NCBI GenBank assembly: GCA_041665365.1
Contig: JBAYIY010000004.1
Coordinates: 8,610-72,609 of the forward strand
Source of the DNA: Patescibacteria group bacterium
Lineage (GTDB): Bacteria > Patescibacteriota > Patescibacteriia > UBA9570
DNA length: 64,000 nucleotides
Reading direction: 5' to 3'
Part shown: positions 1-49,082 of the stretch, one piece after another
Layout: each line of letters begins with the position of its first letter
Position numbering within the stretch: position 1 is the first letter of the stretch
Notes under the pieces: model-generated
Told to the model about the DNA's origin: nothing
What the model saw: the letters and a program-made list of their open reading frames with translations, nothing else
The model's database searches: none
Position numbers and translations under genes: made by a program

Positions 1-3000
1 AAAGTAACTGTACCGAGTGATGGTAGCGTGGTAGATGGTTCATATGCCTTTTCTGAAGATAAAACTGCAGCGGTGTTTTATCCAGCCAGTGATTATCAGG
101 CTGATACTACTTATAAGGTAGAATTAACCAGTGCCATCGAAGGGATTAACCCAGATACCGGCGCGGTCTATAATTTATCCTCCAGTGATTCAAAACGGAT
201 TTTTACTTTCAGCACCGGTACCACCACCGATGATATTCCACCAACTGTTAATGTGGCCGAACTGGCACCATTTCCAGCTGACGGTGATGTGGATATTTGT
301 TTGAACCCAACACTGCAGGTATCATTTTCGGAAAGCCTTGATCCGGCATCGCCATCTGATAATAATTTTTGGTTATTCAAAGCCGCTGACGTTGTAGCCG
401 ATACATTAGATATTGGTAACATTCGGTTAACCAGTATTGGTGGGGAATCGGATGATACTATTGTTACCTCTCCGCAAGACCAATTAGATAGTAACACTGA
501 GTATGGCATTAGTTTGTATAGTGGTGACCCAGCGACCGATCAGTTTACTGGCGCCATTTATGATACATGCGGCAACCCGTTGAGTGGTAATTTTGATGTT
601 CTGATGACAGGTAGCCCAACGGATGATTATATCGATTCGGCTGCCACCACCTATCCCTGGACATTTACGACCGGCGATCAACCATATTGTGTACCGAATA
701 TTGATAGTGTCAGCCAAGAAGATTCTTACTACAGTGAAGATCAAGCACCAATCGGTACCAGTGGAGATGAAGATACTGGTGTTACCACTTTAACCGGTGA
801 TTATCTTTATCCATTTTATGATGTTAATTTTAACGATAATATCTCGGCAGCTGGAATAAATTGTTTTGATACTGGGCACGATACTACATTAGGTTGTTTT
901 GTTAGCCATACTGGTAGTTCCAGTATTTCTTTGCGCTTACCGGTGGCCAGTCAAACCGGGGTAGTGAGTGTGGAAAATAATAATGGTGCCGATGATTCAC
1001 CGCAAGTGGCGGTAGTAGCTTCACCTTATCTGCGTAGTACTTCACCAGCCACTGGGCCAGTTGGACAGTATATTACCATTCGCGGAAAGCATTTCGGTGA
1101 TTATGATCCAGCTGTATCTGGCAGTGAGCGTGGTCAAGTGTGGTTTGGTGATGTGGCCGGTGAATTCGTTTGTGCGGATGGTTGGGACGATACCAGTATT
1201 ATTGTGCGTGTACCAGTGGGGTTAAATGTTGATGATACACCAACCATTCAAGTTATTACAGCCGCCGGTAAATATAGTAATCAATTAAGCTTTACCGTAA
1301 CCGACGGTACACCTGGCCCTGGTTTGTGTGAGTTAGTACCAAAGTGTAGTGATACTGGAGCCGATAGTGTCACGGCCTTAGGAGAAAATTTTGGAGATGA
1401 TGGTGCCGTTTATTTTCAATCATCTTCTGGTGAGGTTAATATTGGCACGGTGACTAGTTGGAATGTGTATAATGAAACCTATCTTAGTCAGACCGTTGTC
1501 ACGGATGGCACGCCGGTAACTGCTCTAGATACGTATAGTTTTTCAGTTGGGTCTACTGGTATTAGTAATAGTTTAGATTTTAAAATTTCCTGTGCCGAAC
1601 CGCCTAGTTTATTTGAGTCTTATAGTTGTGATCTCAGTGCCGGCACCTATTATCTACCAAATCCAACCAGTTCGAGTGATAATGCCTGTGTTAATAGTGT
1701 GATTGATTTTGCTTTCACCACGACTATGGATGATACTGCGGTTGAATCTGGCGTGGCGATTTATAAGTGTAATAATACAGAACCATTCGATGATACAACT
1801 TGTACGCCAATTACTGGTGAGTATATTAGCGGTTTTCTCGATTCAGCTTATGGTGCCGGCAGTACGGCTAGTGAATATTCCTTCACTCCGAGCGGTGGTT
1901 TTTCGGCTGGTTACTACTATAAAGTAACTATACCATCAAGTGTGACTGACAGCACTGGTGTGGGCTTAGATAGTGATTACGCCTGGAATTTTAAAGTGCG
2001 AGATGATACTAGTGCCTGTAAAGTAGATTCTTTATCAGTTTCACCAGCCACGGAACGTGTCACGGGTTATGACGCGGTGGATGCGTGTCTGGATAATCAT
2101 AATTATAAAGACACAAGCTATTCATTGCGCGCTCGTCCGGCCACGGCTGATTGTTTGATGCTTGATGCGGTGGGGGATTACACTTGGGATATAAGTGAAC
2201 CTGCTATATTAACTTTTGGTAGCAATAGCACCACCGGTAGCGATGTCGTTGGTAGTAGTCTGACTCATACTACAACTAATGGTTATGATACTGTTTGTTT
2301 ACAGGGAGCCGGCGAAACCAATGATGGTTTATCTACTGTCTCTGCCTCCATCGAAGGTGTGTCAGATTCAGCTGATATTGAGGTTGATTTTGGTTATTGT
2401 ACGCAAGATAGTGATTGCTATACGGCCGATTGTCGTGATACCTATTGTGATGCCACCACGTCACATTGTGCTCCAGATGTAATTGGATTTACCCCAGCTA
2501 CGGTTGGAGCCGGTGGTTGTTTAACTTTAAATGGTTGCTATTTTGGTAGTGATCAAACTCAATCGGGTTATTGTACGTGTACCAGTTTAAAAGCAGACGG
2601 TGAAACCTGCACGATTGATGAAGGTGATGTGGCCTGTTTGTTATCTGGTGGTATTTCCAGTTGTACTTTAAATGAGGAATATTGTGAGTTAGGTAGCACT
2701 TGTACCACTGAATCAGCCGAGGCTAATTATGATTTAGGTTATTTTAGGGGTTGTGACTGTATCATGACTGATGGTACTAGCCGCACTTGTCGTGTGGAAG
2801 ATGGTGCTACCCAATGTGTGGTAGCTGGTTCTGAAACTTGTTCAGCTACTTCAAGTACATTTACCGCCGGTGGTGCTGGCAGTATCAGTTTTGGTAGTAC
2901 TACCGCCTCAACTCCAGCTTCAACCTACTGTGGTGACGTTTGGAATACCGATCAAGTAGTGGTACAAGTTCCAGAAGATGGTTCAGTTACCCCGGGCACC

Positions 3001-6000
3001 TACGATGTAACATTACAGAGTTACTACGGATTGTCTGACACCATTGAGGGTTGTGCGGTGGGTAGTGACCCAACAGCTTGTTTATGTAGAATAGAGCCAG
3101 CTCGTGGCCAAGAAGGTACCATCGCCGATTTATTTGGTGACCACTTTGATCTTTTCACCACCAATCGGCGAGTCACTTTTGCTGGTTCAATCAGTCGTGT
3201 TCAGACTGATGGCACTGAAACTTGGACTAGTGCCAATGAAATTAACAACTCTATCGTACCAGAAGGGGCTGTTAGTAGTTCTGAAGGTGTGCAATTGGAG
3301 GACGATACTTCTACCAGTAACGCTTTGAATTTTAATGTGAGTTGTAGTTCCGATTTTGATTGTGCCACCGGTTGTTGTAACGCCGGGCAGTGTGCAGCGG
3401 CCGAGCAGTGCAATATTTGTACCACTGACAGTGATTGTTCTTCCAGTGCTTGTACTTCCACTTGTGTGGCCAGTACTTGTGCGCCGGTTATTACTAAGCT
3501 TAGTCCAGATCATGGTGCCGTCGGGCAACCGGTAACTATTCAGGGTTGTCATTTTGGGTCTTATTATGATCCCGCCAGTTCCACTCCGGGAAGTACCGTT
3601 ACCATGGATGGTATTCAAGCCGAGTTAGCCTGTTCAGAAACGCAAGAGTGGAGTAACCGCCAGATTATTGTCACAGCACCAGATGGTATATTTACTGATG
3701 CCACCACTGATTTAGCTAGTGTGCAAGTGCAACAGGTTAGTACAGTGAATGCGGAGTTGATCGCTCAAACCAGCAATGCCGTTGATTTTACTATGGATAA
3801 TAGCTGCTCTGAAGTTGATTTGCCAGTGTTGTGTAATGCTAATCCCGTCTACAGCCCAGTGGCTAATGATGTTACTTTAACCGGTGAGAATTTCCGCGCT
3901 GAAGCTGATGGTTATTGCGCTTGTACTACTAGTTTAGGTGACTGCAAAATCACGGCGGGTGATACCTCTTGTACTCTCACAGAAAGTAACACGTATTATG
4001 TCAATCCGACTGATACCAGTGAAGTTTGTGCTAATGGCAGTTCCGGTCCGGCCACCTCCAATGCCAATACTTTTTACGATGCCACCGTTGGTGCTTGTGT
4101 GTATACCGATACCACTGATACAACTATTACTTGTCAGATTACAACTGGGTCGGCCAGTTGTGTAGTAACAAATTCAGACACGTGTTATGCCGATCGGATT
4201 GATACCAGTTTGAAATGTTCAAAAGATGTTACCGGTTTTGTATCATTAGATGGTTCTGCTCAATACTATTCAGATCAAGCAGCAATCATAGATTGGACGA
4301 CATATTCCAGTACAAAATACGATACAACTGTGCCGAGTGATAGTGAAACTGGAGATGTCAACGTAATTTCTACCACTCAAAATAATACTCAGTGCGTCAG
4401 TAATGGTCTTGAATTTCCAATTTCTTGTGCCTCGTGTGGGGAATGTAACAGTACCGCCGATCATGCATTGAATTGTGATCTCACCTATGATGCCGCCTTT
4501 GGTAGTTGTACCACCTCAAGTACTGGGTTTTGCCGCGCTCAACCGGATTCATGCTGTAATGTCTCCAGTTGTATCTACGATGATACTGCCACTACTGCCG
4601 TCGATGGTGGTACTTGTGTTGGTCAGCCAGTAGTAGCCTTTACTGATCCGGTTATGGCTGTTCAACCAGGTGATACAAATATTTGCGCCAATGTGCAGCT
4701 ACATGTGAAATTTAGTGAAGGCATGACTACCAGTGCCGCCACTGATACGAGCGATAACTTTGATAAATATATTTTCTTACGCCCATCTTCAGCTGATGAC
4801 ACAGCTAGTGATGAAACAGTGTTGAGCACAATTACTCCAACCAAAACCGGCAGTGAGTTAACTTTAGATCTGACAAAATTATTGGATTATGACACTGACT
4901 ATGAATTGATCATTCGTAGTCAGGATACAATTGTGTCAGGCACAAAGCATCAATCGGGTGTAATTTCAGCCACGACCGGTGCCGCTATTGGCTGTGATGC
5001 GACCATGAGTGCACTCGGTGTGTGTCATGATGGTTATATCAAATACACTTTTACCACTGCATCAGCGGCTGATTATTCGACCCAGTGTGGTCCGGCCAGC
5101 GTAGTATTAGAGGCGGATAGTAGTGACTTTATTGACCATGATTATACCTTTAATGAATCAGGGCAAACGGAAGATATCACCGCTACCACCTATTCCGGTG
5201 ATAGTCAGGCGATTAGTAGAATTGATGATGGTACAGAACCTGGTTTTTCTTGGAGTTATGACTGGACACCAACCTATACCACCTTAGCCGATTTAGAAGC
5301 CGATATCTGTCCGATTGCTGGCATTATTGGTGCCAGTACGGATGTGCCTAATCAAACTCTCACCGCTGATACACCAGATGCTGAAGGTGAACATACTGAT
5401 ACAGTAAAAGTTTCCATCACTGGAGATGGTTCCGTTGAACAAGGTTGGAATAATTCTTTTACCGATAGTTTATTATACGATTTTCAATACTGTGATCCAG
5501 ATAAATTAGTCACTTATAGTAACAGTGATTACAACTTATATTGGTCATACTGTCAGGGTGATATGGCTGAGTTTGATGAGGTGTTTAGTAGAGATAGCGC
5601 TAAAATTACTGAAGAATATGGTCACACGGAAGATTTTATTTATGAAATCGGTTTTAAAGATACTGCTGCGACTACCAATGATGCCACTACTAATAATAAC
5701 TTGATTGTGTTACGGGTTTATCCAAACGATATTGACGGTTCACCAGCTTCACCTTGGGATAGTATCAATCCAGATTTATGGTATATGCTAAATACCAATA
5801 ACCCTTCGGCTACCGCTACTCCAACCACAGTGAATGGTTATGATGCTGTCACAGTCGGTAATACTGTTTATGTGGCGGCCAATAATTTGGATGATCACGA
5901 TGATTCTATAGAGGTTGAGGGGGAGGAAGAAGAAGATCTTAATTATGGTACTTTATCATCTTACATGTTTGTAGTGGCTTACAGTGCCGATGCCTCCAGT

Positions 6001-6672
6001 GCCACGACTGATGTAGTCACGGCTATTTTAGATGGTTTCAAATTTAATCGTAATGAGACATTATCAACCGATTGTGCCTTAGAAAAAGCTAAATTAGTCA
6101 TCGATACCAACCGGGTGACCGACTTAGGTACGATCGCTTATTTATTAAGTAGTTATTATTATCATGATAGTGACGGTAATGGTGTAAATGATTTTCCAGA
6201 TTTAACCAGTGGTTCATATATTACCGGTTTAACCACGTCAGTTTGGCCATCTTGGGATGCAGTGTTAGGCGATGCGCTGGGGCAGACGTTGTTTACGGAT
6301 CCGGTTAATACTTTTGCCGATGCAACCACACAGTGCCCATACGCGCCGGACGATAATAAATACTATGATGCCTCTGGCTCATGTTGGGATCCGGTAAACA
6401 AAAAATTCTTCGGGCCAACTGATTCTCATGTTTATCTTTATGAATATCAATCGGCTGATCAATTTGCTTTATATTCCAAGCTAGATTATACCGGTTTAGG
6501 TAGTTGGGGACAGAGTTACTCGTATGATCCATGCACGACATATTCTGATGGTACCACAGCTGTGTCTACTAAAATCAGTGGTTTTTCCGGAGGGTGTTCG
6601 ACCTTTAACTACCTGGTCAATAATACATTGACGACAGATAATACCCTGTATGCCAAACTCTTTGCCGATTGA
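1..6672 (+). CDS. Giant secreted/cell-surface protein (over 2214 aa). The reading frame is open from base 1, so the gene is probably 5'-truncated by the window edge. It is Thr/Ser/Asp/Gly/Cys-rich with repeated IPT/TIG-like modules and many CxxxC pairs.
   Basis: The track ORF 28..6672 is in frame with bases 1-27 with no stop. Repeated '...GQ(Y/P)(I/V)TI(R/Q)G.HFG...' segments resemble IPT/TIG domains. The composition is extreme in Cys and Thr. No TM segment is seen in the part covered. Confidence 0.6.
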   Translation, partial: KVTVPSDGSVVDGSYAFSEDKTAAVFYPASDYQADTTYKVELTSAIEGINPDTGAVYNLSSSDSKRIFTFSTGTTTDDIPPTVNVAELAPFPADGDVDICLNPTLQVSFSESLDPASPSDNNFWLFKAADVVADTLDIGNIRLTSIGGESDDTIVTSPQDQLDSNTEYGISLYSGDPATDQFTGAIYDTCGNPLSGNFDVLMTGSPTDDYIDSAATTYPWTFTTGDQPYCVPNIDSVSQEDSYYSEDQAPIGTSGDEDTGVTTLTGDYLYPFYDVNFNDNISAAGINCFDTGHDTTLGCFVSHTGSSSISLRLPVASQTGVVSVENNNGADDSPQVAVVASPYLRSTSPATGPVGQYITIRGKHFGDYDPAVSGSERGQVWFGDVAGEFVCADGWDDTSIIVRVPVGLNVDDTPTIQVITAAGKYSNQLSFTVTDGTPGPGLCELVPKCSDTGADSVTALGENFGDDGAVYFQSSSGEVNIGTVTSWNVYNETYLSQTVVTDGTPVTALDTYSFSVGSTGISNSLDFKISCAEPPSLFESYSCDLSAGTYYLPNPTSSSDNACVNSVIDFAFTTTMDDTAVESGVAIYKCNNTEPFDDTTCTPITGEYISGFLDSAYGAGSTASEYSFTPSGGFSAGYYYKVTIPSSVTDSTGVGLDSDYAWNFKVRDDTSACKVDSLSVSPATERVTGYDAVDACLDNHNYKDTSYSLRARPATADCLMLDAVGDYTWDISEPAILTFGSNSTTGSDVVGSSLTHTTTNGYDTVCLQGAGETNDGLSTVSASIEGVSDSADIEVDFGYCTQDSDCYTADCRDTYCDATTSHCAPDVIGFTPATVGAGGCLTLNGCYFGSDQTQSGYCTCTSLKADGETCTIDEGDVACLLSGGISSCTLNEEYCELGSTCTTESAEANYDLGYFRGCDCIMTDGTSRTCRVEDGATQCVVAGSETCSATSSTFTAGGAGSISFGSTTASTPASTYCGDVWNTDQVVVQVPEDGSVTPGTYDVTLQSYYGLSDTIEGCAVGSDPTACLCRIEPARGQEGTIADLFGDHFDLFTTNRRVTFAGSISRVQTDGTETWTSANEINNSIVPEGAVSSSEGVQLEDDTSTSNALNFNVSCSSDFDCATGCCNAGQCAAAEQCNICTTDSDCSSSACTSTCVASTCAPVITKLSPDHGAVGQPVTIQGCHFGSYYDPASSTPGSTVTMDGIQAELACSETQEWSNRQIIVTAPDGIFTDATTDLASVQVQQVSTVNAELIAQTSNAVDFTMDNSCSEVDLPVLCNANPVYSPVANDVTLTGENFRAEADGYCACTTSLGDCKITAGDTSCTLTESNTYYVNPTDTSEVCANGSSGPATSNANTFYDATVGACVYTDTTDTTITCQITTGSASCVVTNSDTCYADRIDTSLKCSKDVTGFVSLDGSAQYYSDQAAIIDWTTYSSTKYDTTVPSDSETGDVNVISTTQNNTQCVSNGLEFPISCASCGECNSTADHALNCDLTYDAAFGSCTTSSTGFCRAQPDSCCNVSSCIYDDTATTAVDGGTCVGQPVVAFTDPVMAVQPGDTNICANVQLHVKFSEGMTTSAATDTSDNFDKYIFLRPSSADDTASDETVLSTITPTKTGSELTLDLTKLLDYDTDYELIIRSQDTIVSGTKHQSGVISATTGAAIGCDATMSALGVCHDGYIKYTFTTASAADYSTQCGPASVVLEADSSDFIDHDYTFNESGQTEDITATTYSGDSQAISRIDDGTEPGFSWSYDWTPTYTTLADLEADICPIAGIIGASTDVPNQTLTADTPDAEGEHTDTVKVSITGDGSVEQGWNNSFTDSLLYDFQYCDPDKLVTYSNSDYNLYWSYCQGDMAEFDEVFSRDSAKITEEYGHTEDFIYEIGFKDTAATTNDATTNNNLIVLRVYPNDIDGSPASPWDSINPDLWYMLNTNNPSATATPTTVNGYDAVTVGNTVYVAANNLDDHDDSIEVEGEEEEDLNYGTLSSYMFVVAYSADASSATTDVVTAILDGFKFNRNETLSTDCALEKAKLVIDTNRVTDLGTIAYLLSSYYYHDSDGNGVNDFPDLTSGSYITGLTTSVWPSWDAVLGDALGQTLFTDPVNTFADATTQCPYAPDDNKYYDASGSCWDPVNKKFFGPTDSHVYLYEYQSADQFALYSKLDYTGLGSWGQSYSYDPCTTYSDGTTAVSTKISGFSGGCSTFNYLVNNTLTTDNTLYAKLFAD

Positions 6673-7237
6673 CCCTAATGTTGAAGATATCTTCGCTGAA
6701 TCTGTTAATGCCGCAGCGGGAGCGGAACCAGAGCCAGTTGCGCAACCATATGAACCGGTAGTTTATCCCCGATCACATCGTAAGCTATGGATTATTGCCA
6801 TAGTGCTAGTAGGTTTGCTACTATTAGGTGGTCTAGTGGTTGGTGGTTATTTATATTGGCAGACATTGCCTAAACCACAATCACCCGTTCCTACCAATAT
6901 CAATACCAACACAAACATCAATACTAATATACCAGTCACGGTTCCTATCAATACCAACACAAACATCAATACTAATACCAATATTAATGTTACTAGTGTG
7001 GATACCGATCATGATGGATTATCAGATGAGGAAGAATTGGTGTTAAATACCAATCCAAAAAAGAAGGATACCGATGAAGATGGATTATCCGACCGTGAGG
7101 AAGTACGGGTTTATGATACTGACCCGCGTAATCCTGATACGGACGGTGATGGCTACACTGACGGTGATGAAGTAACCCACTTCTATGACCCTAATAATCC
7201 TGATTCAACTAAACGTTTGTTCGATTTACCAAAATAA
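6650..7237 (+). CDS. Membrane-anchored protein with Asn/Thr (NTNTNINTN) low-complexity repeats and three thrombospondin type 3-like Ca-binding repeats (DxDxDGxxDxxE).
   Basis: Single TM 'LWIIAIVLVGLLLLGGLVVGGYLYW'. Motifs 'DTDHDGLSDEEE', 'DTDEDGLSDREE', 'DTDGDGYTDGDE'. An exact 31-bp direct repeat lies at 6899-6929 and 6947-6977 inside the CDS. Confidence 0.55.
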   Translation: MPNSLPIDPNVEDIFAESVNAAAGAEPEPVAQPYEPVVYPRSHRKLWIIAIVLVGLLLLGGLVVGGYLYWQTLPKPQSPVPTNINTNTNINTNIPVTVPINTNTNINTNTNINVTSVDTDHDGLSDEEELVLNTNPKKKDTDEDGLSDREEVRVYDTDPRNPDTDGDGYTDGDEVTHFYDPNNPDSTKRLFDLPK

Positions 7238-7254
7238 ATAACTTAAATTACATT

Positions 7255-8433
7255 ATGGATTTTCCACAACCACCCCAAGGCGCAGCTACTCCATTTCCAG
7301 CCGCGCCACAACCCACTCCTACTACACCACCGTCTTTTCCGGCCACTCCACCAACCTCACCATTGCCCGCCCCATCATTTCCACCACAACCTGTGCAAAT
7401 TCCAGTGCAAGGGGTAAGCGACGAGCAGGTTTATGCTATGCCAGAAAAATTTTTATCGACTAATCCGGCCGGTAGCAGCCCGAGTAGTGAAAAACCGCCG
7501 CGAAAAAAACTGACCATTGTGTTAATTGTGCTAATAATATTAATGGTGCTCGCTACGATTGGTGGAGTAGCCTATTATTTCTTAGTATTGGCTAAAGCTC
7601 CAGTCACAACCACTACATCAACCACTTCTTCCAAAACAACTTCTACTAGTACTACTAACACAAGTAACAATAATGTTAATGCTGTGAATGCCAGCAATGC
7701 AAACAGTAACACGAATAAAATTAATAGTAATGTCAGTAATGTTAATAATGCCAACACTAATAGTAATACAAATTCAAATACCAATGCTGTTGTTAACACA
7801 AATACCAACGTTAATACTAATGTAAATGCTCCGGTAAATACCAACACGAATATTAGTGTCCCGGCCAAAGACACTGACGGTGATGGTTTAACCAATGACG
7901 AAGAAAAAATTTGGGGAACTAAAGCCGATTTACCTGATACGGATGGTGATGGTTATAAAGACGGTGTTGAAGTAGTCGCCGGTTATGATCCAACTAATGC
8001 TACGAGTGCTGGTAAAATATCTGATAATGCAGCTTTAGTCGATACTTATACAAATAGTATGTATAGTTACACTGTGTTACATCCAAACAAGTGGATTGCC
8101 GATGCCTTAACGGAGGGTGATAATACTGAAATATTATTTACGCCAAATACCCTTGAATTAGCGGGACAGTTCGTGGCGATTAGTGTCACTAGTAATCCAT
8201 CTGGGTTAACTGCCTTAGATTGGTACGTTGAAACCAACAAAGTAGCCGAAACTAGTGTAAAACCGGTGACAACATTTTCCGGTTTAAAGGGTGTCTGGAG
8301 TGCTGACGGTAGTACCGCTTACTTTGTTGATAATGATTATGTCTATGCTGTCAGTTATCGTTATGGCACCAGTGCTGAATTGTTCTTCCCTGATACCTTT
8401 CAGTTAATGGTGAAAAGCTTTTCCTTGAATTAA
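7255..8433 (+). CDS. Paralog of the preceding gene: Pro-rich N-terminus, one TM, a long N/T/S/V low-complexity tract, two TSP3-like Ca-binding repeats, and a C-terminal globular domain.
   Basis: 'DTDGDGLTNDEE' and 'DTDGDGYKDGVE'. TM 'IVLIVLIILMVLATIGGVAYYFLVL'. NTN/NSN repeats. Confidence 0.55.
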   Translation: MDFPQPPQGAATPFPAAPQPTPTTPPSFPATPPTSPLPAPSFPPQPVQIPVQGVSDEQVYAMPEKFLSTNPAGSSPSSEKPPRKKLTIVLIVLIILMVLATIGGVAYYFLVLAKAPVTTTTSTTSSKTTSTSTTNTSNNNVNAVNASNANSNTNKINSNVSNVNNANTNSNTNSNTNAVVNTNTNVNTNVNAPVNTNTNISVPAKDTDGDGLTNDEEKIWGTKADLPDTDGDGYKDGVEVVAGYDPTNATSAGKISDNAALVDTYTNSMYSYTVLHPNKWIADALTEGDNTEILFTPNTLELAGQFVAISVTSNPSGLTALDWYVETNKVAETSVKPVTTFSGLKGVWSADGSTAYFVDNDYVYAVSYRYGTSAELFFPDTFQLMVKSFSLN

Positions 8434-8435
8434 TC

Positions 8436-8849
8436 ATGCAACTTGAGTTATCCAAGCGTGTATCTGCTCAGCTGGTGACGGAATCATTCATAAAGACTAT
8501 ATTTTCAGCTCTGCAGCGTTATGTAAAAATTCCAGACAGTTATGACTTTATCAGTGTAGATGTAGTCGGTGATACGTCAATGCAGGCTTTAAATAAGACA
8601 TACCGTCAGCAAAACTACATTCCAGATGTACTCTCGTTTCCGTATGGGCCAGAAGGTGGTGAAATTGTACTGTGTTATCCACAAGCCAAGCGGCAAGCCA
8701 AAGCCAAACAAGTCCCACTACGTTCAGAATTAGCTTGGTTATTAATACATGGATTTTTACACATCCTTGGATATGATCATGAACAAGCCACGGCTGCTAA
8801 AATTATGCGCCCACTCGAACAACGTATTTTACAGGCAATAAAATTATGA
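8436..8849 (+). CDS. ybeY: Endoribonuclease YbeY (rRNA maturation factor)
   Basis: Zn-binding motif 'HGFLHILGYDHE' (H-x3-H-x5-H) characteristic of YbeY. About 137 aa. Confidence 0.8.
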   Translation: MQLELSKRVSAQLVTESFIKTIFSALQRYVKIPDSYDFISVDVVGDTSMQALNKTYRQQNYIPDVLSFPYGPEGGEIVLCYPQAKRQAKAKQVPLRSELAWLLIHGFLHILGYDHEQATAAKIMRPLEQRILQAIKL

Positions 8850-9223
8850 TTAGTGTACGACAACTCCATAACAGTTTCTACTATGCTGTTCAAGGCCTAC
8901 AGTATGTTTGGCGCAATGAACAGAATTTTCGCTTACAGTGCGGTATAGCTGTGTTAGTGGTGCTGGCGATGGTATTCTTTCGTGTTACTTTACCAGAAGC
9001 TATTGTGCTCACTATGATGATAGTGTGTGTCTTAGTGTTAGAAGTGATTAATACCATTTTTGAGAAGCTGGTTGATATCCTAAAACCGCGCATGCACACT
9101 TATGTTGGCATTATTAAAGATATGATGGCAGCGACAGTGCTGTTAGCTTCGGTAGGGGCGGCTTTGATTGCTGCGATGGTGTTCATACCTTATTGCCTTG
9201 AATTGGTGCAATTGCTACAATAG
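8846..9223 (+). CDS. dgkA: Diacylglycerol/undecaprenol kinase (DgkA family)
   Basis: Three TM helices in about 125 aa. 'WRNEQNFRLQ' and 'EVINTIFEKLVD' resemble DgkA conserved blocks. ybeY-dgkA synteny is common. Start overlaps the ybeY stop (ATGA). Confidence 0.65.
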   Translation: MISVRQLHNSFYYAVQGLQYVWRNEQNFRLQCGIAVLVVLAMVFFRVTLPEAIVLTMMIVCVLVLEVINTIFEKLVDILKPRMHTYVGIIKDMMAATVLLASVGAALIAAMVFIPYCLELVQLLQ

Positions 9224-9227
9224 TACC

Positions 9228-10478
9228 ATGGCGCGCGCTGACATCATTACTGGATTAGATATAGGCTCAACGACTATTCGTGTTGCGGTTGGGCAGGTCA
9301 ATCAGCACGATGGTGATTTACATATTATTGGTGCTGCTGAGCATCCCGCTGAAGGTATCAACAAAGGAGTTGTGACCAGCATCGAAGATGCGGTGTCGAG
9401 TATTTCTGGTGCTCTAGATAAAGCTGAGCGCATGACCGGCATTCCCATCGAGCGAGCTTATGTGAGTGTTAATGGTAGTCATATTGTGGCGCAAGATAGT
9501 CATGGCGTAGTGGCGGTGTCTAAAGCCGATGGTGAAATTCGTGAAGATGATGTGCAACGCGCCATTGAAGCCGCGCAGACCGTAGCCACCCCACCGAACT
9601 ATGAAATTTTACATGTGATTCCACATCAGTTTCAGGTGGATAATCAATCTGGCGTAAAAGATCCAATTGGCATGACCGGCATAAAGTTAGAAGTTGATGC
9701 TCAGATTATTTTGGGTTTAACCGCGCAAATCAAAAATTTAACCAAGTGTGTTTATCGTACCGGAACAGATATTCAAGATCTCGTGCTGGGTGTATTAGCA
9801 GTCGGTGAAGCAGTTTTAACTAAAAGACAAAAAGAATTAGGTGTGGCTTTAGTGAGTATGGGTGGATTAACCACCAGCATAATGGTATTTGAAGAAGGGG
9901 ATATGATTCATACCAAAGTTATCCCAGTCGGTTCTGGTCACATCACTAATGATATTGCCATTGGCTTACGCACGTCTGTTGATGTGGCTGAAGCCATCAA
10001 GGCTCGCTTTGGCACAGCTGTTCCGGATGAAGTGGGTAAGCATGAAGAAATTGATTTACGTGAAATTGATCCAAATGAAAATAGTCGTGTCTCACGCCGC
10101 GAAGTAGCCGAAATTATTGAAGCGCGTTTAGAGGAATTATTTACCTTAGTGAATAAAGAATTAAAAGTCATTAATCGTCATGGCATGTTACCAGCTGGTA
10201 TAGTTTTAACCGGTGGTGGTGCTAAGTTGACCGGCATTACAGAGGTGGCTAAAAAACAATTCTCATTACCAGCCTCAGTTGGTACACCCCGTCAGTTCAA
10301 AACAGCTATTGATAAGATAGAAGATCCGGTCTTTGCGACTGCATTAGGCCTGGTTTTGTGGGGAGAAAATATGAATGAACAACCGCACGCTGGTGGTTTA
10401 GCCTCACTAGCTCGTTTTTCTGTAGTGGGCGATGCCACGACAAAAATGAAGAAGTGGTTTAAGAGTTTACTACCATAA
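9228..10478 (+). CDS. ftsA: Cell division protein FtsA
   Basis: The N-terminus 'MARADIITGLDIGSTTIRVAVGQV' is the actin-like FtsA phosphate-1 motif. The start was moved to the ATG at 9228 (the track ORF begins at 9168 inside dgkA). Lies directly upstream of ftsZ. Confidence 0.85.
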   Translation: MARADIITGLDIGSTTIRVAVGQVNQHDGDLHIIGAAEHPAEGINKGVVTSIEDAVSSISGALDKAERMTGIPIERAYVSVNGSHIVAQDSHGVVAVSKADGEIREDDVQRAIEAAQTVATPPNYEILHVIPHQFQVDNQSGVKDPIGMTGIKLEVDAQIILGLTAQIKNLTKCVYRTGTDIQDLVLGVLAVGEAVLTKRQKELGVALVSMGGLTTSIMVFEEGDMIHTKVIPVGSGHITNDIAIGLRTSVDVAEAIKARFGTAVPDEVGKHEEIDLREIDPNENSRVSRREVAEIIEARLEELFTLVNKELKVINRHGMLPAGIVLTGGGAKLTGITEVAKKQFSLPASVGTPRQFKTAIDKIEDPVFATALGLVLWGENMNEQPHAGGLASLARFSVVGDATTKMKKWFKSLLP

Positions 10479-10580: not shown

Positions 10581-11735
10581 ATGGCTAATGGTAAATATGT
10601 AGAAGTTAAACCTGATGTAGAAACATTCGCAAAGATTCTTGTGGTGGGCGTTGGTGGCTCCGGTGGCTCTGCCGTTTCCCGCATGATTGACAGTGGTTTA
10701 AAAGGGGTTGAATTTGTCGCTATTAACACCGATGCCCAGGCTTTACACCATAATCCAGCTAAGAACAAAATCCATATTGGTAAGAGTACAACTCGCGGTT
10801 TAGGTGCCGGTATGGATCCTGCCATTGGAGCGAAAGCCGCTGAAGAAACTAATGAAGAATTAACCGCCATGCTCAAGGGAGCGGATATGGTGTTTGTGAC
10901 CTGTGGTTTAGGTGGTGGTACTGGGTCTGGGGCTGGTCCTATTATTGCTCGTTTAGCGCGTGATGCCGGTGCGTTAACAGTAGCCGTTGTAACCAAACCA
11001 TTTCAATTTGAAGGAGCGCAACGTAACCAAATTGCCGATGCCGCTTATAATGAAATGGCCGATGCGGTGGATACAATTATCACCATTCCAAATGATCGCT
11101 TGTTACAAATTATTGATAAGAAAACATCTTTACTTGATGCCTTTAAAACTGTCGACAATGTTTTATTTCAAGGTGTGCAAGGAATCTCTGATTTGATTAC
11201 TGTACCAGGTTTAATTAACGTTGACTTTGCTGATGTAAAATCGGTTATGGCCAACGCCGGTTCGGCCTTGATGGGGATCGGTAAAGCCACGGGTGAGAAT
11301 CGAGCTGTAGAGGCAGCTAAATCAGCCGTTGATAGTCCATTATTAGAATTGAGTATTGATGGAGCTAAGGGTATCTTGTTTACCATCACTGGTGGACCAA
11401 ATTTGAGTATGTACGAAGTCAATGAAGCCGCTCGGGTGATTACTGAATCGGCTGATCCATCCGCCAAGATTATTTTTGGATCCAATGTTGATGAATCTTT
11501 AGGTGATGAAGTTAAAGTAACGGTCGTAGCGACTGGTTTTGGTCAACCAGCCAAAGCCGCCAAAAAAATTCAAGCTGTGCGCCAAACGCCATTTAGCAAA
11601 CGCGAAGATAAAGATATGCCCGTTGCAACCAGTAATACTTTCCGCAACAAAAATATCATGGACGAAGCTCCCGTAGATAATTCCTCCGATGAAGATTTAG
11701 AGGTACCGGCCTTCATTCGGAAGAAGATGATGTAA
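10581..11735 (+). CDS. ftsZ: Cell division GTPase FtsZ
   Basis: Tubulin signature 'GGGTGSGAGPIIA'. 'VVGVGGSGGSAVSRM'. Confidence 0.95.
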   Translation: MANGKYVEVKPDVETFAKILVVGVGGSGGSAVSRMIDSGLKGVEFVAINTDAQALHHNPAKNKIHIGKSTTRGLGAGMDPAIGAKAAEETNEELTAMLKGADMVFVTCGLGGGTGSGAGPIIARLARDAGALTVAVVTKPFQFEGAQRNQIADAAYNEMADAVDTIITIPNDRLLQIIDKKTSLLDAFKTVDNVLFQGVQGISDLITVPGLINVDFADVKSVMANAGSALMGIGKATGENRAVEAAKSAVDSPLLELSIDGAKGILFTITGGPNLSMYEVNEAARVITESADPSAKIIFGSNVDESLGDEVKVTVVATGFGQPAKAAKKIQAVRQTPFSKREDKDMPVATSNTFRNKNIMDEAPVDNSSDEDLEVPAFIRKKMM

Positions 11736-11752
11736 GGAACAACAATTAACAT

Positions 11753-11794
11753 AAAACTGGTAGAGACATGCCATGGCATGTCTCTACCAGTTTT
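11753..11794 (+). terminator. 42-nt perfect palindrome (aaaactggtagagacatgcc|atgg|catgtctctaccagtttt) after ftsZ. It is flanked by an A-tract and a T-tract, so it can act as a bidirectional intrinsic terminator. It belongs to the GTAGAGAC palindrome family.
   Basis: Reverse-complement identity checked base by base. T4 follows on the + strand and A4 precedes. Confidence 0.7.
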
Positions 11795-11860
11795 ATGTGT
11801 GTCAATATGTTTTTTATTATGGTTTATTTATGGCAGATGATCTATACTAACTGACGAACT

Positions 11861-15999: not shown

Positions 16000-16162
16000 A
16001 GCCCAGGAGATTATGCTCAAGTATTTTGGCGAGCAGGTGGCCTGTGTGTTTTGTCCTGGGCAAGCTTTTGATACTTTTGCCATGATCGCTGAGCTGCATG
16101 GCGTGGAGGATAGTGTGGTTGAAGAAATGCTGGCGGAGATAAATCAAAGCATTGGCAAATAA
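15944..16162 (+). CDS. DUF1858-type small redox/disulfide domain protein
   Basis: 72 aa. 'ITKESLIGEVLLEHPEAQEIMLKYFG...CVFCPG' matches the DUF1858 architecture (about 70 aa, conserved Cys pair). Confidence 0.55.
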   Translation: MPTITKESLIGEVLLEHPEAQEIMLKYFGEQVACVFCPGQAFDTFAMIAELHGVEDSVVEEMLAEINQSIGK

Positions 16163-17460
16163 GTTTCGATTTCGTAGTGGTGCACTTGACGGCGGTAATT
16201 ATTCCATTCCATTTCTTTATTCATGATTAGTTTAGCGTGCACATCCTCACCTAAAGTGTCTTTCAGTAAAACACTGTTTTTGGCTAAATTAATCGCTTCT
16301 TTTAAGCTACCGGGCAGAGCGGTGATATTGGCTTTAGCCATCGCTTCATCAGACATTTCGAAAATATCATTTTCCGTGGCTGGGCTTAATTGATAATTTT
16401 CCATAATACCTTTTAGACCGGCGCGTAACATTACGGCAAAAGTTAAGTAAGGGTTAGCGGCTGGGTCTGGGCAACGTAATTCAATGCGGGTAGCATTAGC
16501 TTCACCACGGGTTAGAGGGATACGCACCAACGTAGAGCGGTTACGGCGACCCCAGGCTAGGTAAGCGGGTGCTTCGTAACCTGGCACGAGTCTTTTATAT
16601 GAGTTTACATACTGATTAGTTACTAAGACTATTTCCGGCATGTGTTTTAAAATTCCAGCCACATAGGATTTAGCTAAACTGGATAAACCATATTCATCGC
16701 GACTATCATGAAACATATTTTCCCCATTTTTCCATAAACTTTGGTGCACATGCATGCCGCTGCCATTTTGGCCAAAAATCGGTTTGGGCATGAATGTAGC
16801 ATAGGCGCCATGTTCACGAGCAATTTCTTTCACCACATATTTATATGTCATGACAATATCTCCCATCGATAGAGAATCACTGTATTTCATGTTGATCTCC
16901 TGTTGTGATGGAGCCACTTCATGATGGCCACGTTCAACGCTATAACCGAGTCGTTCTAGAGCCTCCACCGTGCGTTCACGCAAAATGGTACCTTGTTCCA
17001 GAGTAATCTGATCAAAATAACCGGCTTTGTCTAAACCAACTGTGGCGGTATTATCTTTAAAATAAAAGTATTCTAGTTCAGGTCCAACAAAATAATCATA
17101 ACCCTGTTGTTTAGCAAAAGCGACGTTGCGGGCTAAAACATTACGTGGGTCTGAGCCATACGGTAAACCATGAGCATCATATACCGAGCACATGAAGCGA
17201 GCGATTTTATGGACATCCGCCTCAATTGGTAAAATGGCGAACGAATCTAAAATTGGTTTGAGCACTAAATCGCTTTCTTCGATGCGGGAGAAACCATCAA
17301 TCGATGAACCATCAAAAAAGGTGCCCTCTTCTAAATAGCGCTCGAGTCTTTCTACCGGAAAAGTAATTCCCTTTAGTTGGCCGAGTACATCGGTAAACCA
17401 AAATCCTACCATGGTCACGTGTTCGGCTTTCACTTTGGCTAATATTTCCGCTGTCGTCAT
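16144..17460 (-). CDS. glnA: Glutamine synthetase
   Basis: 'FFDGSSIDGF' GS signature. 'GMHVHQSLW' and 'NRSTLVRIP' regions. 438 aa. Confidence 0.85.
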   Translation of the reverse strand: MTTAEILAKVKAEHVTMVGFWFTDVLGQLKGITFPVERLERYLEEGTFFDGSSIDGFSRIEESDLVLKPILDSFAILPIEADVHKIARFMCSVYDAHGLPYGSDPRNVLARNVAFAKQQGYDYFVGPELEYFYFKDNTATVGLDKAGYFDQITLEQGTILRERTVEALERLGYSVERGHHEVAPSQQEINMKYSDSLSMGDIVMTYKYVVKEIAREHGAYATFMPKPIFGQNGSGMHVHQSLWKNGENMFHDSRDEYGLSSLAKSYVAGILKHMPEIVLVTNQYVNSYKRLVPGYEAPAYLAWGRRNRSTLVRIPLTRGEANATRIELRCPDPAANPYLTFAVMLRAGLKGIMENYQLSPATENDIFEMSDEAMAKANITALPGSLKEAINLAKNSVLLKDTLGEDVHAKLIMNKEMEWNNYRRQVHHYEIETYLPML

Positions 17461-17597: not shown

Positions 17598-18620
17598 TCA
17601 ACTGCGGAGTTTTTGTTCTATCGCAGCTGGTGCCAAGGCTTTGAGCAAAAGAGTCCGATCATGTATATAAGACAGACCAATGCCGGCAAATATTCGGTAT
17701 GGTTCAAAATTAATACGATCTGCCGGTGTAGTTTCTAAATAATGTTTTGTAGTTATCAAGGCCTCGTAGGCGGCTTGCTGCACGGCTGGGTCGTCTATCA
17801 AAGATTGCGGGCAATTACAAAACAAAAGTGTATAAGCTAAATCCAATTGGCGAAAAATATCATAGCGGGTAAAGCGTCTTTGTAAGACTTCATGATTTTG
17901 GCGATCATTTAACTTTTTTCTCAGTCTATCACGATCAATAATCTCAACTTCTATAAATGTACCATGACTAGCCTGACCAGGAATAAAATTAAATTGGGGT
18001 CGCACTGGAGCGATACCATGTTCCAGCATTTGTACTACAACACTATCAGGATTGATCTCGCGCGCTAACTTTAATGCCCGATCAATGGTGGCTGCTGGTG
18101 ATTGATCGGTGGCTCTGGCACTAGTTTCTCTTACCGTGTCACGCAAATCACTCCCAAAATGTTTTACTACGGCTCGATCAGCTTTTTGAGTGGCTCGTTT
18201 TTTTTGCTCAATTGTTTGAGTTTGATCCAATAATGTTTCATAGGCTTTATCAATTATGGCATCATACTCAGCTTGTTGTGTAGGATCACCGCTCACTCGT
18301 TTCATCACAGTAACGGGGTAGCCAGCACCATCAGCGGCACTATCCAAACGGGGATCGGCGGCACCAGTAACACCGATAGTGTGTTCCGGAAAAAGTTCGT
18401 AGATTAAAGACATTTCATAATATTTGGTTTTATGATGAAAGGGTGATATGGGAATTTTTTTACCGGTGGTTCGTTCAATTTGTCCATGCCAATGAGTTTG
18501 ATACCATTCTTTTAAAACCTGGGGATCGTCTGGTGTTCCAAAAAAATAGACACGTCCTTCCTCACCAGTTTTATCGGGTAAATGTTTTTTAAGTTCAAGT
18601 AATCCTTCACGATTAAGCAT
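17598..18620 (-). CDS. Hypothetical protein (340 aa) conserved next to glnA and the GAF-ANTAR regulator. No family recognised.
   Basis: Long ORF with normal composition. 'RVYFFGTPDDPQVLKEWYQTHWHG'. No motif I can assign. Confidence 0.5.
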   Translation of the reverse strand: MLNREGLLELKKHLPDKTGEEGRVYFFGTPDDPQVLKEWYQTHWHGQIERTTGKKIPISPFHHKTKYYEMSLIYELFPEHTIGVTGAADPRLDSAADGAGYPVTVMKRVSGDPTQQAEYDAIIDKAYETLLDQTQTIEQKKRATQKADRAVVKHFGSDLRDTVRETSARATDQSPAATIDRALKLAREINPDSVVVQMLEHGIAPVRPQFNFIPGQASHGTFIEVEIIDRDRLRKKLNDRQNHEVLQRRFTRYDIFRQLDLAYTLLFCNCPQSLIDDPAVQQAAYEALITTKHYLETTPADRINFEPYRIFAGIGLSYIHDRTLLLKALAPAAIEQKLRS

Positions 18621-18623
18621 AGT

Positions 18624-19301
18624 TTACAGCGATAAAGCAATAATAATCGCTTCGGCGATTTCTTTCATAGTCTTTTTTGTATCCATCGATTTTTTTTGAA
18701 TCAAACCATAAGCTTGCTCTTCGGTGAGTTGTTGTTTCTTCATTAAAATACCCTTAGCTTTTTCCACCACTTTACGCGTTTCTAGCGCCGCTTTGAGAGT
18801 TTGCGTTTCAGAAATCAGTTTAGCGTTATAAATGGCTCCACCAACTTGAGTGGCAATTAACCGTAATAATCTTAACTCGGTTTCTGGATGTTGTTTTTTG
18901 CGGCGGTGTTGCACATTAATTACTCCCACAATTTCATCCTGATAAATAATTGGTACTGATACAAAGGCTTCCCAGCGATCCTCATCTAAATAGGGTACTA
19001 CTTTAAAACGTTTATCGGCATAAGATTGCTCCGTAAGAGCTACTAACTGGCGATGTTCAGCTACCCAACCGGTGATACCTTCACCAAATTTCATGGCCAC
19101 TTGGTTAATCATTTTTGGGTGTGGTATCTTGGACGCTTTCAAAATTAAGTGATCATCCTGCACTAGATAGATCAAACAAGAGTCGGCTTTCATGGTATCT
19201 GAGACTAATTCAACCACTTCCTTCAATACTTCATCCAAATCAAGCTTATAGCTAATTGTATCCATGATGCGCTCTAATAAGGCTAATTGTCGTTTTAACA
19301 T
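18624..19301 (-). CDS. GAF-ANTAR RNA-binding antitermination regulator
   Basis: The N-terminal half is GAF-like ('DSCLIYLV...GEGITGWVAEH'). The C-terminus 'ETRKVVEKAKGILMKKQQLTEEQAYGLIQKKSMDTKKTMKEIAEAII' is a typical ANTAR helix bundle. Confidence 0.7.
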   Translation of the reverse strand: MLKRQLALLERIMDTISYKLDLDEVLKEVVELVSDTMKADSCLIYLVQDDHLILKASKIPHPKMINQVAMKFGEGITGWVAEHRQLVALTEQSYADKRFKVVPYLDEDRWEAFVSVPIIYQDEIVGVINVQHRRKKQHPETELRLLRLIATQVGGAIYNAKLISETQTLKAALETRKVVEKAKGILMKKQQLTEEQAYGLIQKKSMDTKKTMKEIAEAIIIALSL

Positions 19302-19318: not shown

Positions 19319-19924
19319 TTAGAAGTGAGCGTGCAATAGGCTAGTATTATCAGTCATTTTACCCTGATCGAGTATAATTAAGTGCTGGCTCATGAACTGT
19401 GCCTCTTTAATATCGTGAGTAACGTATATGACAGTAATGTTTTTTTGCGTTATTAGTTGTTTAAACCAGCGCGCCAGCTCTACCCGAGTAATAGCATCAA
19501 GCGCGGCGAAAGGTTCGTCACACAATAATACCGTTGGTTCATAAACTAAACTTCTGGCTAACATTACACGCCTAATTTCACCACCACTAATTTCATGGGG
19601 GTAACGGGTAGTTAATTGTGCGACACCACAATCATTCATAATCTCAGTACTTGATTTTTTTAGGTGTCGAACATGTAAGGGATAATTTATATTTTCTTCG
19701 ACAGTAAGATGTGGAAAGAGGGTATTGTGTTGTTCAATATATCCAAGTCGTTTTGGATGGAAACCTGTTATATTACCAGTATAATCTTGTAAGCCGGCGA
19801 TACAGCGTAATAATGTAGTTTTACCCGAACCGGATTTTCCCAGCACAGTTAAAATATCACCAGTGGGTACAGTAATGTGAATATCTCTAAGGATTAACGC
19901 CTGAGTAATCTGGAGGTTGAGCAT
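19319..19924 (-). CDS. ABC transporter ATP-binding protein (thiamin/Fe3+/polyamine importer type)
   Basis: Walker A 'GKSGSGKTTLLRCIAGL', signature 'ISGGE', Walker B 'LLCDEPFAALD'. The start was chosen at the internal Met (the track ORF starts at 19954). Confidence 0.8.
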   Translation of the reverse strand: MLNLQITQALILRDIHITVPTGDILTVLGKSGSGKTTLLRCIAGLQDYTGNITGFHPKRLGYIEQHNTLFPHLTVEENINYPLHVRHLKKSSTEIMNDCGVAQLTTRYPHEISGGEIRRVMLARSLVYEPTVLLCDEPFAALDAITRVELARWFKQLITQKNITVIYVTHDIKEAQFMSQHLIILDQGKMTDNTSLLHAHF

Positions 19925-22232: not shown

Positions 22233-22380
22233 AAAATATGTTTATTAAAAATAAAATTCCCAATTTATAGGGAATACAGCCTGTATTCCCTACGCTGGCA
22301 TAACCCAGATCAGGTAATGTAAGGATACTTCTCAGTCCATAAGGACGCTCCTATACAGTGCTATCATATTACCAGTTGAG

Positions 22381-48640: not shown

Positions 48641-49082
48641 GTATCTAGTATTTGGCCTACGGGTTGTCATTGGTTTGATTTTTGTGATCGCCGGTTTAAG
48701 TAAAACAACCGCGCCAATTGCAGAGTTTATTGGTTTAGCCAGACAGTGGAATATTTTACCAGAACCGTATGTCACCATTTACGCATTTTTATTGCCCTGG
48801 GTAGAACTAGTGTTTGGTTTAACTTTATTATTCGGTGCTTGGTCTCGATTAAGTGCCTTTATTGTGTTGTTAATGTTGCTGTCTTTTTTAATCGCTATTG
48901 GCATCAACATTTCTCGAGGAACGTTATTGCAAGACTGTGGTTGTTTTGGCGGTTGGTTTGAATTAGGTGCAACCTTCCAAGAATTATTCTGGCGAGATGC
49001 AGCTATGTTTGTTGGTACCCTATGGATAATGTTTATGCCAAAGCCATTGTGGTTATCGGTGGATCAATGGTTGACATCATAA
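48609..49082 (+). CDS. DoxX-family membrane protein
   Basis: 'VFGLRVVIGLIFVIAGLSK' and three or four TM helices. DoxX partners with DsbA-like proteins in known thiol-oxidoreductase complexes. The start is uncertain (48585 or 48609). Confidence 0.55.
   Translation: MRKWQNNSVNKYLVFGLRVVIGLIFVIAGLSKTTAPIAEFIGLARQWNILPEPYVTIYAFLLPWVELVFGLTLLFGAWSRLSAFIVLLMLLSFLIAIGINISRGTLLQDCGCFGGWFELGATFQELFWRDAAMFVGTLWIMFMPKPLWLSVDQWLTS

Follow-up and report, generated by a model that had tools for sequence, protein, structure and literature searches.

A giant Ig-like protein and two TSP3 tethers encoded near ftsA and ftsZ in Patescibacteria: a probable core component of the cell surface

What kind of surface structure is encoded by three consecutive genes that open a 64-kb stretch of a Patescibacteria genome, and does it look like a switchable adhesin or like a fixed part of the cell envelope? 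This stretch (64,000 nucleotides (nt) of contig JBAYIY010000004.1, called here the window) carries, on the + strand of positions 1-8433, the gene of a giant protein directly followed by the genes of two small membrane proteins, named here tether 1 and tether 2. A first-pass annotation, made from the letters alone, had described this trio as a dedicated adhesion or attachment apparatus, possibly subject to phase or antigenic variation. The analysis presented here favours, with a probability of about 0.55, a vertically inherited and probably co-transcribed surface scaffold or attachment module, in which the tethers, with their Ca2+-stiffened TSP3 repeats, would dock the core of the giant through PsbP-like modules. 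The trio is thus probably a core cell-surface part rather than a switchable adhesin. The three open reading frames (ORFs) had been correctly recognised, as follows.

1-6672, + strand: 3' part of the giant gene (2,223 codons and stop), with the frame open from base 1
6650-7237, + strand: tether 1 (195 amino acids, aa), matching the bacterial thrombospondin type 3 (TSP3) repeat family PF18884 (TSP3_bac; E 3.5e-18, 65.5 bits) in three stretches
7255-8433, + strand: tether 2 (392 aa), matching PF18884 (E 3.8e-11, 43.1 bits)

The evidence that carries this reading comes from the conservation of the locus. Relatives were collected by a scan of one genome per species, seeded with 11 closer tether-2 sequences, which yielded 295 relatives; the locus statistics are drawn from the best 80 of these 295 and from six hand-inspected loci of other species (L004-L009). 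The order rpsU-yqeY-giant-tether1-tether2-ybeY-dgkA-ftsA-ftsZ was found in about 65 species-level loci, which belong to Kerfeld-, Falkow-, Magasanik-, Buchanan-, Uhr- and Kuenenbacteria. These lineages are what we take to be the GTDB class ABY1, and Kerfeld- and Uhrbacteria are placed in the Parcubacteria group at NCBI. A tether-2-like ORF is present in 68 loci of other species; directly upstream of it lies an ORF with a transmembrane (TM) helix and TSP3 repeats in 64 of the 68 (nearly always with three motifs), ybeY follows directly downstream in 65 (typical gap -4 to +15 nt) and ftsA is present in 61. Giants were counted only where 3.5 kb or more of upstream sequence was available, which holds for 52 loci: 42 of them encode a giant with the core domain described below, and five of the other ten carry large proteins with the N-terminal hairpin of the giant. 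All seven loci inspected by hand through precomputed annotation, over which tether-2 identity falls from 100% to about 31%, read (rpsU)-yqeY-giant with T4SS_pilin hairpin-(optional Big_7 protein of ~500 aa)-tether1-tether2-ybeY-(dgkA)-ftsA-ftsZ-nrdR. Throughout the clade, the TSP3 number is near-constant: tether 1 almost always has three repeats and tether 2 two. The matches in Saccharibacteria and Moranbacteria cover the TSP3 motif only, without the trio context. These counts, together with a domain common to the giant and tether 2, bear out the proposal that the three genes are a dedicated unit. The annotation had also named a contrary case, that of ubiquitous OmpA-like anchors unlinked to giant proteins in relatives. 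Since the trio order recurs in about 65 loci, the linkage holds, and neither an OmpA domain nor a beta-barrel was found in the tethers, for which Pfam and NCBIfam show only TSP3.

The distances between giant cores and between tether-2 domains track those of FtsA and FtsZ about as the latter two track each other, which points to vertical inheritance. In Firmicutes, the rpsU-yqeY block continues to ybeY-dgkA. Taken with the order in Listeria, where phoH comes after rpsU-yqeY (PMC4424878), this comparison suggests that the trio occupies a slot of an ancient housekeeping cluster. The fixed slot, the class-level vertical inheritance and the tight packing with ybeY, dgkA and ftsA are more in line with a constitutive component of the envelope than with an accessory adhesin.

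This packing is visible at each junction. The giant stop and the tether 1 start overlap by 23 nt, 2 nt separate tether 2 from ybeY, and ybeY and dgkA overlap by 4 nt. The 5' part of the giant gene was read from a metagenomic contig (ENA ERZ27249449, k141_1447249; locus L001), identical to the window with an offset of 2,746 nt, and there the giant starts 4 nt inside the yqeY stop. The genes downstream of the trio are as follows.

8436-8849, + strand: ybeY (Pfam YbeY)
8846-9223, + strand: dgkA (Pfam DAGK_prokar)
9228-10478, + strand: ftsA (precomputed Pfam FtsA)
10581-11735, + strand: ftsZ (precomputed Pfam FtsZ)

A terminator scan of the trio region showed nothing terminator-like until ftsZ ends; the first strong structure of this kind 3' of the giant is a perfect palindrome with a 20-bp stem right after ftsZ, at 11750-11797. 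Because the genes overlap or abut and no such site precedes the end of ftsZ, co-transcription of the trio with its neighbours is likely. A long transcript running from yqeY to ftsZ may end at this palindrome. Upstream of yqeY, L001 has an 84-aa ORF at the position of rpsU (S21) in the relative L006. A second giant gene (2,217 aa, with DUF2341 and Calx-beta; L001:1-1518) ends just upstream of this 84-aa ORF and yqeY; it is not kept at that position, which is taken by GATase in L004 and by HisRS-HIT in L006.

A common module links the giant and tether 2 at the protein level. In the giant, it makes up the first half of the core domain.

5623-6555, + strand: core domain of ~310 aa, the most conserved part of the giant among orthologues
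5629-6051, + strand: N-terminal half of the core, PsbP/Mog1-like, homologous to the tether-2 C-terminal domain
6052-6555, + strand: C-terminal half of the core, a helix plus beta region with conserved K.KL.RD..R..D, WPSW, P.DP.N and TCW
8026-8430, + strand: PsbP/Mog1-fold domain of tether 2 (aa 258-392)

Seven orthologous giants, of 2,223-3,722 aa and with 3.3-4.3% Cys, are collinear, and this ~310-aa block is the best conserved of their parts. The hidden Markov model (HMM) of the giant core domain also matches the C-terminal domain in several tether-2 orthologues, and profile-profile alignment by hhalign places core 3-143 on tether-2 291-392 with 96.7% probability (E 4.4e-10). On these HMM cross-matches and this alignment, the giant and tether 2 are judged to have a homologous PsbP-like module in common. 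The AlphaFold2 (AF2) model of tether 2, computed from 31 sequences, has confidence values (pLDDT) above 90 over aa 200-392, a helix at aa 85-113 and values below 50 over aa 119-197. Foldseek searches of the PDB with its C-terminal domain reached a probability of 1.00, the matches being CyanoP (2lnj, E 7.5e-6), PsbP, Mog1p, Tsi3 and Apa of M. tuberculosis, with E values from 7.5e-6 to 1e-3 for CyanoP, PsbP and Mog1p. The model of the N-terminal half of the giant core superposes on SciW, DcrB, Mog1 and TiME. The likeness of both domains to PsbP, Mog1, DcrB and TiME is at the level of the fold, with 9-16% identity, and carries no link to photosystem II or Ran. PF01789 (PsbP) has no match to the tether 2 of the window, and only one distant homologue (P0095) has it. 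The complete core domain has no Pfam family and no significant PDB sequence match. A library-wide search with its HMM returned 1,532 clusters at 50% identity, most of them proteins of 300-1,500 aa in which the domain comes after an N-terminal signal or TM segment, so that it makes up a large uncharacterised family of extracytoplasmic domains.

The two tethers look like short membrane proteins with a cytoplasmic tail and a Ca2+-binding outer block, whose elements are listed here.

6680-6697, + strand: VEDIFA motif in the N-terminal tail of tether 1, predicted cytoplasmic
6785-6859, + strand: TM helix of tether 1 (aa 46-70)
7001-7171, + strand: three TSP3 repeats of tether 1 (from aa 118, 140 and 163)
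7429-7452, + strand: VYAMPEKF, in which the Pro-rich, predicted cytoplasmic tail of tether 2 ends
7507-7593, + strand: TM helix of tether 2 (aa 85-113)
7870-7971, + strand: two TSP3 repeats of tether 2 (from aa 206 and 228)

The single TM helix and the TSP3 repeats seen at first in both small proteins are well founded, the PF18884 scores given above (three and two repeats) being over the gathering cut-off of 25 bits; the DxDxDGxxDxxE repeats are predicted from their sequence to bind Ca2+. Since Arg/Lys residues precede the TM helix, both tethers are predicted to be single-TM proteins with the N-terminus in and the C-terminus out. Between the TM helix and the TSP3 block lies a spacer, Asn/Thr/Ile-rich in tether 1, disordered and S/T/N-rich in tether 2 (aa 114-203). 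To call the two paralogous anchors is right only as far as the overall architecture and the TSP3 block go (39% identity over 87 aa, in the TSP3 block only), but tether 2 has in addition a Pro-rich tail and a C-terminal domain of 135 aa. Likewise, an N/T-rich spacer does exist in both, but the NTN repeats are lineage-specific: the spacers of both tethers are hypervariable, and orthologues differ in Asn content, from 1 to 17%. This means that the NTN repeat is not a conserved feature, and the Asn-rich tract looks like a lineage-specific form of a relaxed, low-complexity disordered linker. The short cytoplasmic motifs are far better kept: tether 1 has EPEDIF(A) close to its N-terminus, and tether 2 has V[YH]TMP[EDQ]KF immediately ahead of its TM helix. 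Across the 22 orthologues of the tether-1 alignment (A5), the TSP3 Asp residues do not vary, and D13 and F15 hardly do; in the tether-2 alignment (A1), M62, P63 and F66 are nearly invariant, the TSP3 Asp residues, P277, W323 and Y356 are invariant, and W280 is nearly so. The tether 1 motif EPEDIFA loosely resembles the FtsZ C-terminal peptide EDLEVPAFIRK (window 11685-11732). A protein search found 238 homologues of tether 2, with Candidatus Kerfeldbacteria as the nearest named relatives; the exact product is a hypothetical protein in NCBI.

The giant had been announced as a protein of over 2200 aa. The large ORF is real, but it is cut by the window edge: its listed start is a GTG at position 28, yet the frame is open to base 1, and the full protein (L001:2300-9418) has 2,372 aa, 250.7 kDa and a pI of 4.05, with 324 D+E vs 75 K+R, 554 S+T and 89 Cys (3.75%). 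The 149 aa N-terminal to the window contain two hydrophobic helices and a Lys/Arg-containing loop. This hairpin matches PF18895 (T4SS_pilin) at aa 17-81 (E 7.5e-12, 45.6 bits vs a cut-off of 26.6), as it does in the giants of L004, L005 and L006 (42-50 bits) and of at least nine more loci. The N-terminus also matches, weakly, TrbC/VirB2 and the pilin-like family Mbov_0395, TrbC reaching 30.3 bits vs a cut-off of 27.9 in the L006 giant. The ectodomain that follows comprises 2,283 aa (319 D+E vs 71 K+R, 546 S+T, 89 Cys, pI 4.05) and ends with the core domain; the regions that precede the core are given below.

About 1-141, + strand: Big_5 across the window start (full-length aa 110-196; Pfam)
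229-591, + strand: Big_5 (window aa 77-197; PF13205, E 3.4e-11, two stretches)
1024-1296, + strand: IPT/TIG (window aa 342-432; PF01833, E 4.1e-9, 36.8 bits vs a cut-off of 20.9)
1660-1995, + strand: Big_5 (window aa 554-665), the best stretch of the whole-protein match (E 7.7e-17)
2400-4620, + strand: Cys-rich centre, with TIG-like P..G....hTI.G..F motifs broken by C-x-C...C knots (motif scan)
4627-4920, + strand: Big_5-like (window aa 1543-1640; PF13205 20.7 bits, below the cut-off of 23.6)

The label of a Cys-rich IPT/TIG surface protein is acceptable as a title: the 89 Cys are there, TIG is above its Pfam threshold, and a second, weaker TIG stretch follows the first (E 6.8e-8, 32.8 bits). 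Big_5 is nevertheless the better supported family, with a whole-protein score of 62.4 bits and several copies in the giant. Cys density reaches 4-12 per 100 aa over full-length aa 900-1700. In the central ~600 aa, the Pfam segment scan was empty or sub-threshold, and the TIG-like motifs there fall short of significance. No SLH or other S-layer Pfam family was matched in the trio, and the S-layer matches of a PDB profile search were insignificant (E 0.2-0.4). Protein database searches with the giant C-terminus gave only 2 and 7 matches, and such giants seem to be poorly indexed.

How such a trio could work can be outlined from these predicted parts. The VirB2/TrbC-type two-helix hairpin would hold the proximal end of the giant in the cytoplasmic membrane; from there, Ig-like (Big_5, IPT/TIG) and Cys-knot units would extend in a chain that ends in the core domain. 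The disordered spacers, of about 45 and 90 residues, would let the tethers cross the wall and present Ca2+-stiffened TSP3 modules outside it. There, the related PsbP-like modules would allow the tethers to bind the giant's distal core domain or to organise it, giving a coat or attachment layer that would be a constitutive part of the cell surface. Disulfides made by DsbA-type oxidoreductases of the same window could stabilise this coat: extracytoplasmic disulfide machinery is encoded on the + strand at 48023-48640, 48585-49082, 50464-51147 and 58158-58895 (three DsbA/thioredoxin-like genes and MauE/DoxX), and such genes fit a giant with 89 Cys. From the sequences, we infer physical contact within the trio, Ca2+ dependence and a role as envelope scaffold or in host attachment; the adhesion or attachment role proposed at first is plausible.

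Several observations weigh against this scaffold or attachment reading. In a mirror-tree comparison, giant core and tether-2 domain correlate (r 0.40) no better with each other than with FtsA/FtsZ, and candidate phyla radiation (CPR) genomes are small and rarely rearranged, so that gene order can persist without functional coupling. The core domain is not exclusive to the trio, as the ~1,500 clusters are mostly mid-size stand-alone secreted proteins. The AF2 model of the giant core is of low confidence (9 rows in the alignment) and its C-terminal half has no recognisable fold. Lastly, in five loci (L026, L033, L035, L039 and L049), the large proteins bear the hairpin without a detectable core domain. 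In four of these (L033, L035, L039 and L049), a hairpin-bearing protein of ~850-900 aa is followed by a hairpin-bearing one of ~1,700-2,290 aa upstream of tether 1. Elsewhere, a 5'-truncated hairpin-bearing protein precedes a giant of 2,666 aa (L020), or the core domain forms a secreted protein of its own, at most about 1,090 aa long (L016, L027 and L089, the last cut by the contig end). By sequence, the system thus appears modular.

Four other explanations have been considered, and each has weaker support than the scaffold or attachment reading. The first keeps close to the original proposal and sees in the trio an accessory host-attachment adhesin with repeat-driven phase or antigenic variation, which is held to be unlikely. 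A giant ectoprotein that is Ig-like, Cys-rich and acidic is typical of adhesins, CPR bacteria are presumed to live on host cells, and both the spacers and the giants (2,095-3,722 aa) vary in length among orthologues. The repeats deserve a closer look, since they were the starting point of the variation claim. Exact repeats of 31 bp had been reported inside the anchors; an exact repeat is indeed present, but it is 32 nt long, occurs as one pair and is confined to tether 1.

6898-6929 and 6946-6977, + strand: exact 32-nt direct repeat pair in the tether 1 spacer, encoding INTNTNINTN twice

The copies are 48 nt (16 codons) apart from start to start and in frame, and the two 48-nt units are identical at 38 of 48 positions. 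Two matches were seen against none expected in 100 shuffles. When synonymous codons were resampled for the same peptide, none of 2,000 sequences reached 32 nt (mean 13.7 nt), which argues for a recent duplication rather than for the mere repetitiveness of the peptide. The 32-nt pair thus stems from a recent duplication, in frame and within a low-complexity spacer. This is a point in favour of the adhesin proposal, but the pair is not a genetic switch. Tandem Repeats Finder (TRF) detected no tandem array in tethers 1 and 2, and tether 2 has only 66-79% matches to the repeat units, with no exact repeat of at least 15 nt. Three assemblies with the locus are identical at the repeat, but they are effectively one population; the only difference among them is a 15-nt to 10-nt replacement in ftsA. 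The tether-2 cluster at 90% identity has a single member and no variants, strain-level sampling being minimal. Slippage could only lengthen or shorten the spacer. No frame-shifting tract, as expected of a phase-variable (contingency) locus, was found, nor any polymorphism of the repeat in the three assemblies, a minimal sample of strains. Two in-frame copies in one gene, no TRF array, a TSP3 number that hardly varies and linkers of variable Asn content do not support expansion and contraction as a source of phase or antigenic variation. In addition, the locus is fixed and vertically inherited over a class-level clade, inside a housekeeping operon. It is the variation mechanism alone that lacks support; an adhesive role as such is still plausible.

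The second explanation regards the trio as three unrelated surface proteins lying side by side, their order frozen in small and rarely rearranged genomes. Long syntenic blocks are indeed kept in CPR genomes, the unrelated flanking housekeeping genes are equally conserved in order, and no specific co-evolution signal is seen. This would leave without explanation the domain common to the giant core and tether 2, as well as the TSP3 block common to both tethers. All three proteins are predicted to be membrane-anchored with the ectodomain out, their genes overlap or abut, and where the large protein is altered (L016 and L027; L020, L033, L035, L039 and L049), it still adjoins tether 1. A mere frozen order is thus a poor candidate.

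A further explanation, to which only a slim chance is given, makes the trio a part or substrate of a Patescibacteria type IV secretion system (T4SS): the VirB2-like N-terminus would polymerise or dock and the giant ectodomain would serve as a tip adhesin. The giant N-terminus is above the PF18895 threshold, with the weak TrbC/VirB2 and Mbov_0395 matches besides; VirB2-like pilins are widespread in CPR, often near virB4, and a PrgB-type adhesin was not found there (10.1101/2025.01.22.634366). On the other hand, no virB4, virB6, coupling-protein or other T4SS gene was found in the 64-kb window or in the flanks (up to 10 kb per side) of the listed loci. More broadly, among the genes of the window and of the other loci with listed genes, none of a T4SS, a type IV pilus or a type I secretion system (T1SS) was found, nor was a class III signal peptide in the window. 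The neighbours are always yqeY and ybeY-dgkA-ftsAZ, a C-terminal extension of 2,283 aa is hard to fit in a VirB2-type pilus, and the hairpin may be a simple membrane anchor.

A divisome- or elongasome-linked function, in which the EDIF and MPEKF motifs of the tethers would bind FtsA/FtsZ or another partner and couple surface insertion to division, is improbable. In its favour, the module is near ftsA-ftsZ in 61 of 68 loci, both tethers have near-invariant short cytoplasmic motifs, and an acidic-hydrophobic-Phe motif is loosely like the ...EDLEVPAFIRK end of FtsZ, but this likeness is weak, ybeY and dgkA lie between the module and ftsA, the adjacency may be inherited order, and Pfam and NCBIfam detect no known divisome domain in the tethers. 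A combined version, still quite unlikely, would make the trio a core envelope machine in which the tethers capture the giant and their tails couple assembly of the layer to FtsA/FtsZ; if true, it would be a trans-envelope link from divisome to surface in bacteria without most known envelope systems.

Among known systems, the trio would work like a retained giant adhesin or like a two-component S-layer with a membrane stalk, without belonging to either family. Giant Ig-repeat RTX adhesins of Gram-negative bacteria (LapA, SiiE, MpIBP) are like the giant in their thousands of residues, their acidity, their Ig-like chains and their N-terminal element for surface retention. Those adhesins are themselves stiffened by Ca2+, whereas in the trio the Ca2+-binding motifs are on the separate tethers and a motif scan found no DxDxDG motif in the giant. 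The trio is also without RTX repeats (no RTX or HemolysinCabind Pfam match in the giant), without T1SS genes next to its neighbours yqeY and ybeY, and without an outer membrane; its giant has a VirB2-like hairpin as anchor, and its locus is core and syntenic. A second comparison is that with the Sulfolobus S-layer. SlaA and SlaB resemble the trio as a very large, acidic, Ig-like surface protein encoded beside small membrane-anchored proteins, which could keep it some way off the membrane, in a core and constitutive system. They are not related to it by sequence or fold, and have an archaeal coiled-coil stalk where the trio has two TSP3 tethers, a hairpin on the giant itself and a bacterial host. 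SlaA/SlaB is described as a two-component S-layer with a membrane-bound stalk (PMC10903991).

The tethers share DxDxDGxxDxxE repeats in an extracytoplasmic segment with OmpA-family TSP3 proteins and with Myxococcus CglD and MtsD. The NCBIfam models of CglD and MtsD align to the TSP3 block far below their cut-offs (33 vs 400 bits and 30 vs 800 bits), and the tethers differ in having no OmpA domain, beta-barrel, VWA or lipoprotein signal, as short type-II proteins of a monoderm-like cell. The giant hairpin is like the VirB2/TrbC-like pilins of Patescibacteria, as the PF18895 match above threshold indicates; the pilins described are small and often arrayed near virB4 (10.1101/2025.01.22.634366), whereas in the giant the hairpin is fused to the 2,283-aa ectodomain, at a locus with no T4SS genes. 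The Pam pilus of CPR bacteria (Saccharimonadia and Microgenomatia) is likewise specific to CPR and combines Ig-like folds and membrane-tethered accessory proteins, encoded as a conserved block beside housekeeping genes (10.64898/2026.03.03.709456). It differs from the trio by its lineages, its small pilins, donor-strand exchange and FimC/PapD-like chaperones, and no homology links the two.

The building blocks of the trio are known ones (Ig-like chains, TSP3, PsbP fold, VirB2 hairpin), but their combination, the fixed class-wide locus and the core family look new. No description of the module was found in the literature searched, and a preprint on giant genes concerns Omnitrophota, not this CPR trio. 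A VirB2-type hairpin that anchors a 250-kDa ectoprotein would be an unusual use of this element. The ultra-small CPR/Patescibacteria represent a large part of bacterial diversity and need contact with other cells, while their surface molecules have hardly been described beyond a few cultured Saccharibacteria. In this context, the trio is a concrete candidate, present class-wide, for what makes up most of the surface structure in one large group of uncultured bacteria. It should be easy to find in any metagenome-assembled genome because its slot (yqeY / ybeY-dgkA-ftsAZ) is fixed, and it is a practical target for metaproteomics, cryo-electron tomography and heterologous expression.

The 64-kb window otherwise contains ordinary small-genome housekeeping genes, with a few features of separate interest. 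The segment 60001-62000 has 61.7% GC, vs about 41% elsewhere, and includes an ORF of 579 aa (60096-61835, + strand) that has several hydrophobic segments and matches no Pfam family. A RhuM-like gene (63041-63718; L092:12946-13623) and Bro-N (44924-45736) are found near this GC-rich stretch, which with them looks like foreign or mobile DNA. On the - strand, a thiamine pyrophosphate (TPP) riboswitch at 22270-22362 (62 bits vs a gathering score of 54.3) is found upstream of the operon for an ABC importer (solute-binding protein 21195-22232, permease 19894-21219, ATPase 19319-19954), which is probably devoted to thiamine uptake. A GAF+ANTAR regulator (18624-19301, - strand) is located near glutamine synthetase (16144-17460, - strand), with one unannotated 340-aa gene (17598-18620) between them, and this pairing may mean that nitrogen assimilation is controlled by RNA antitermination in this CPR genome.

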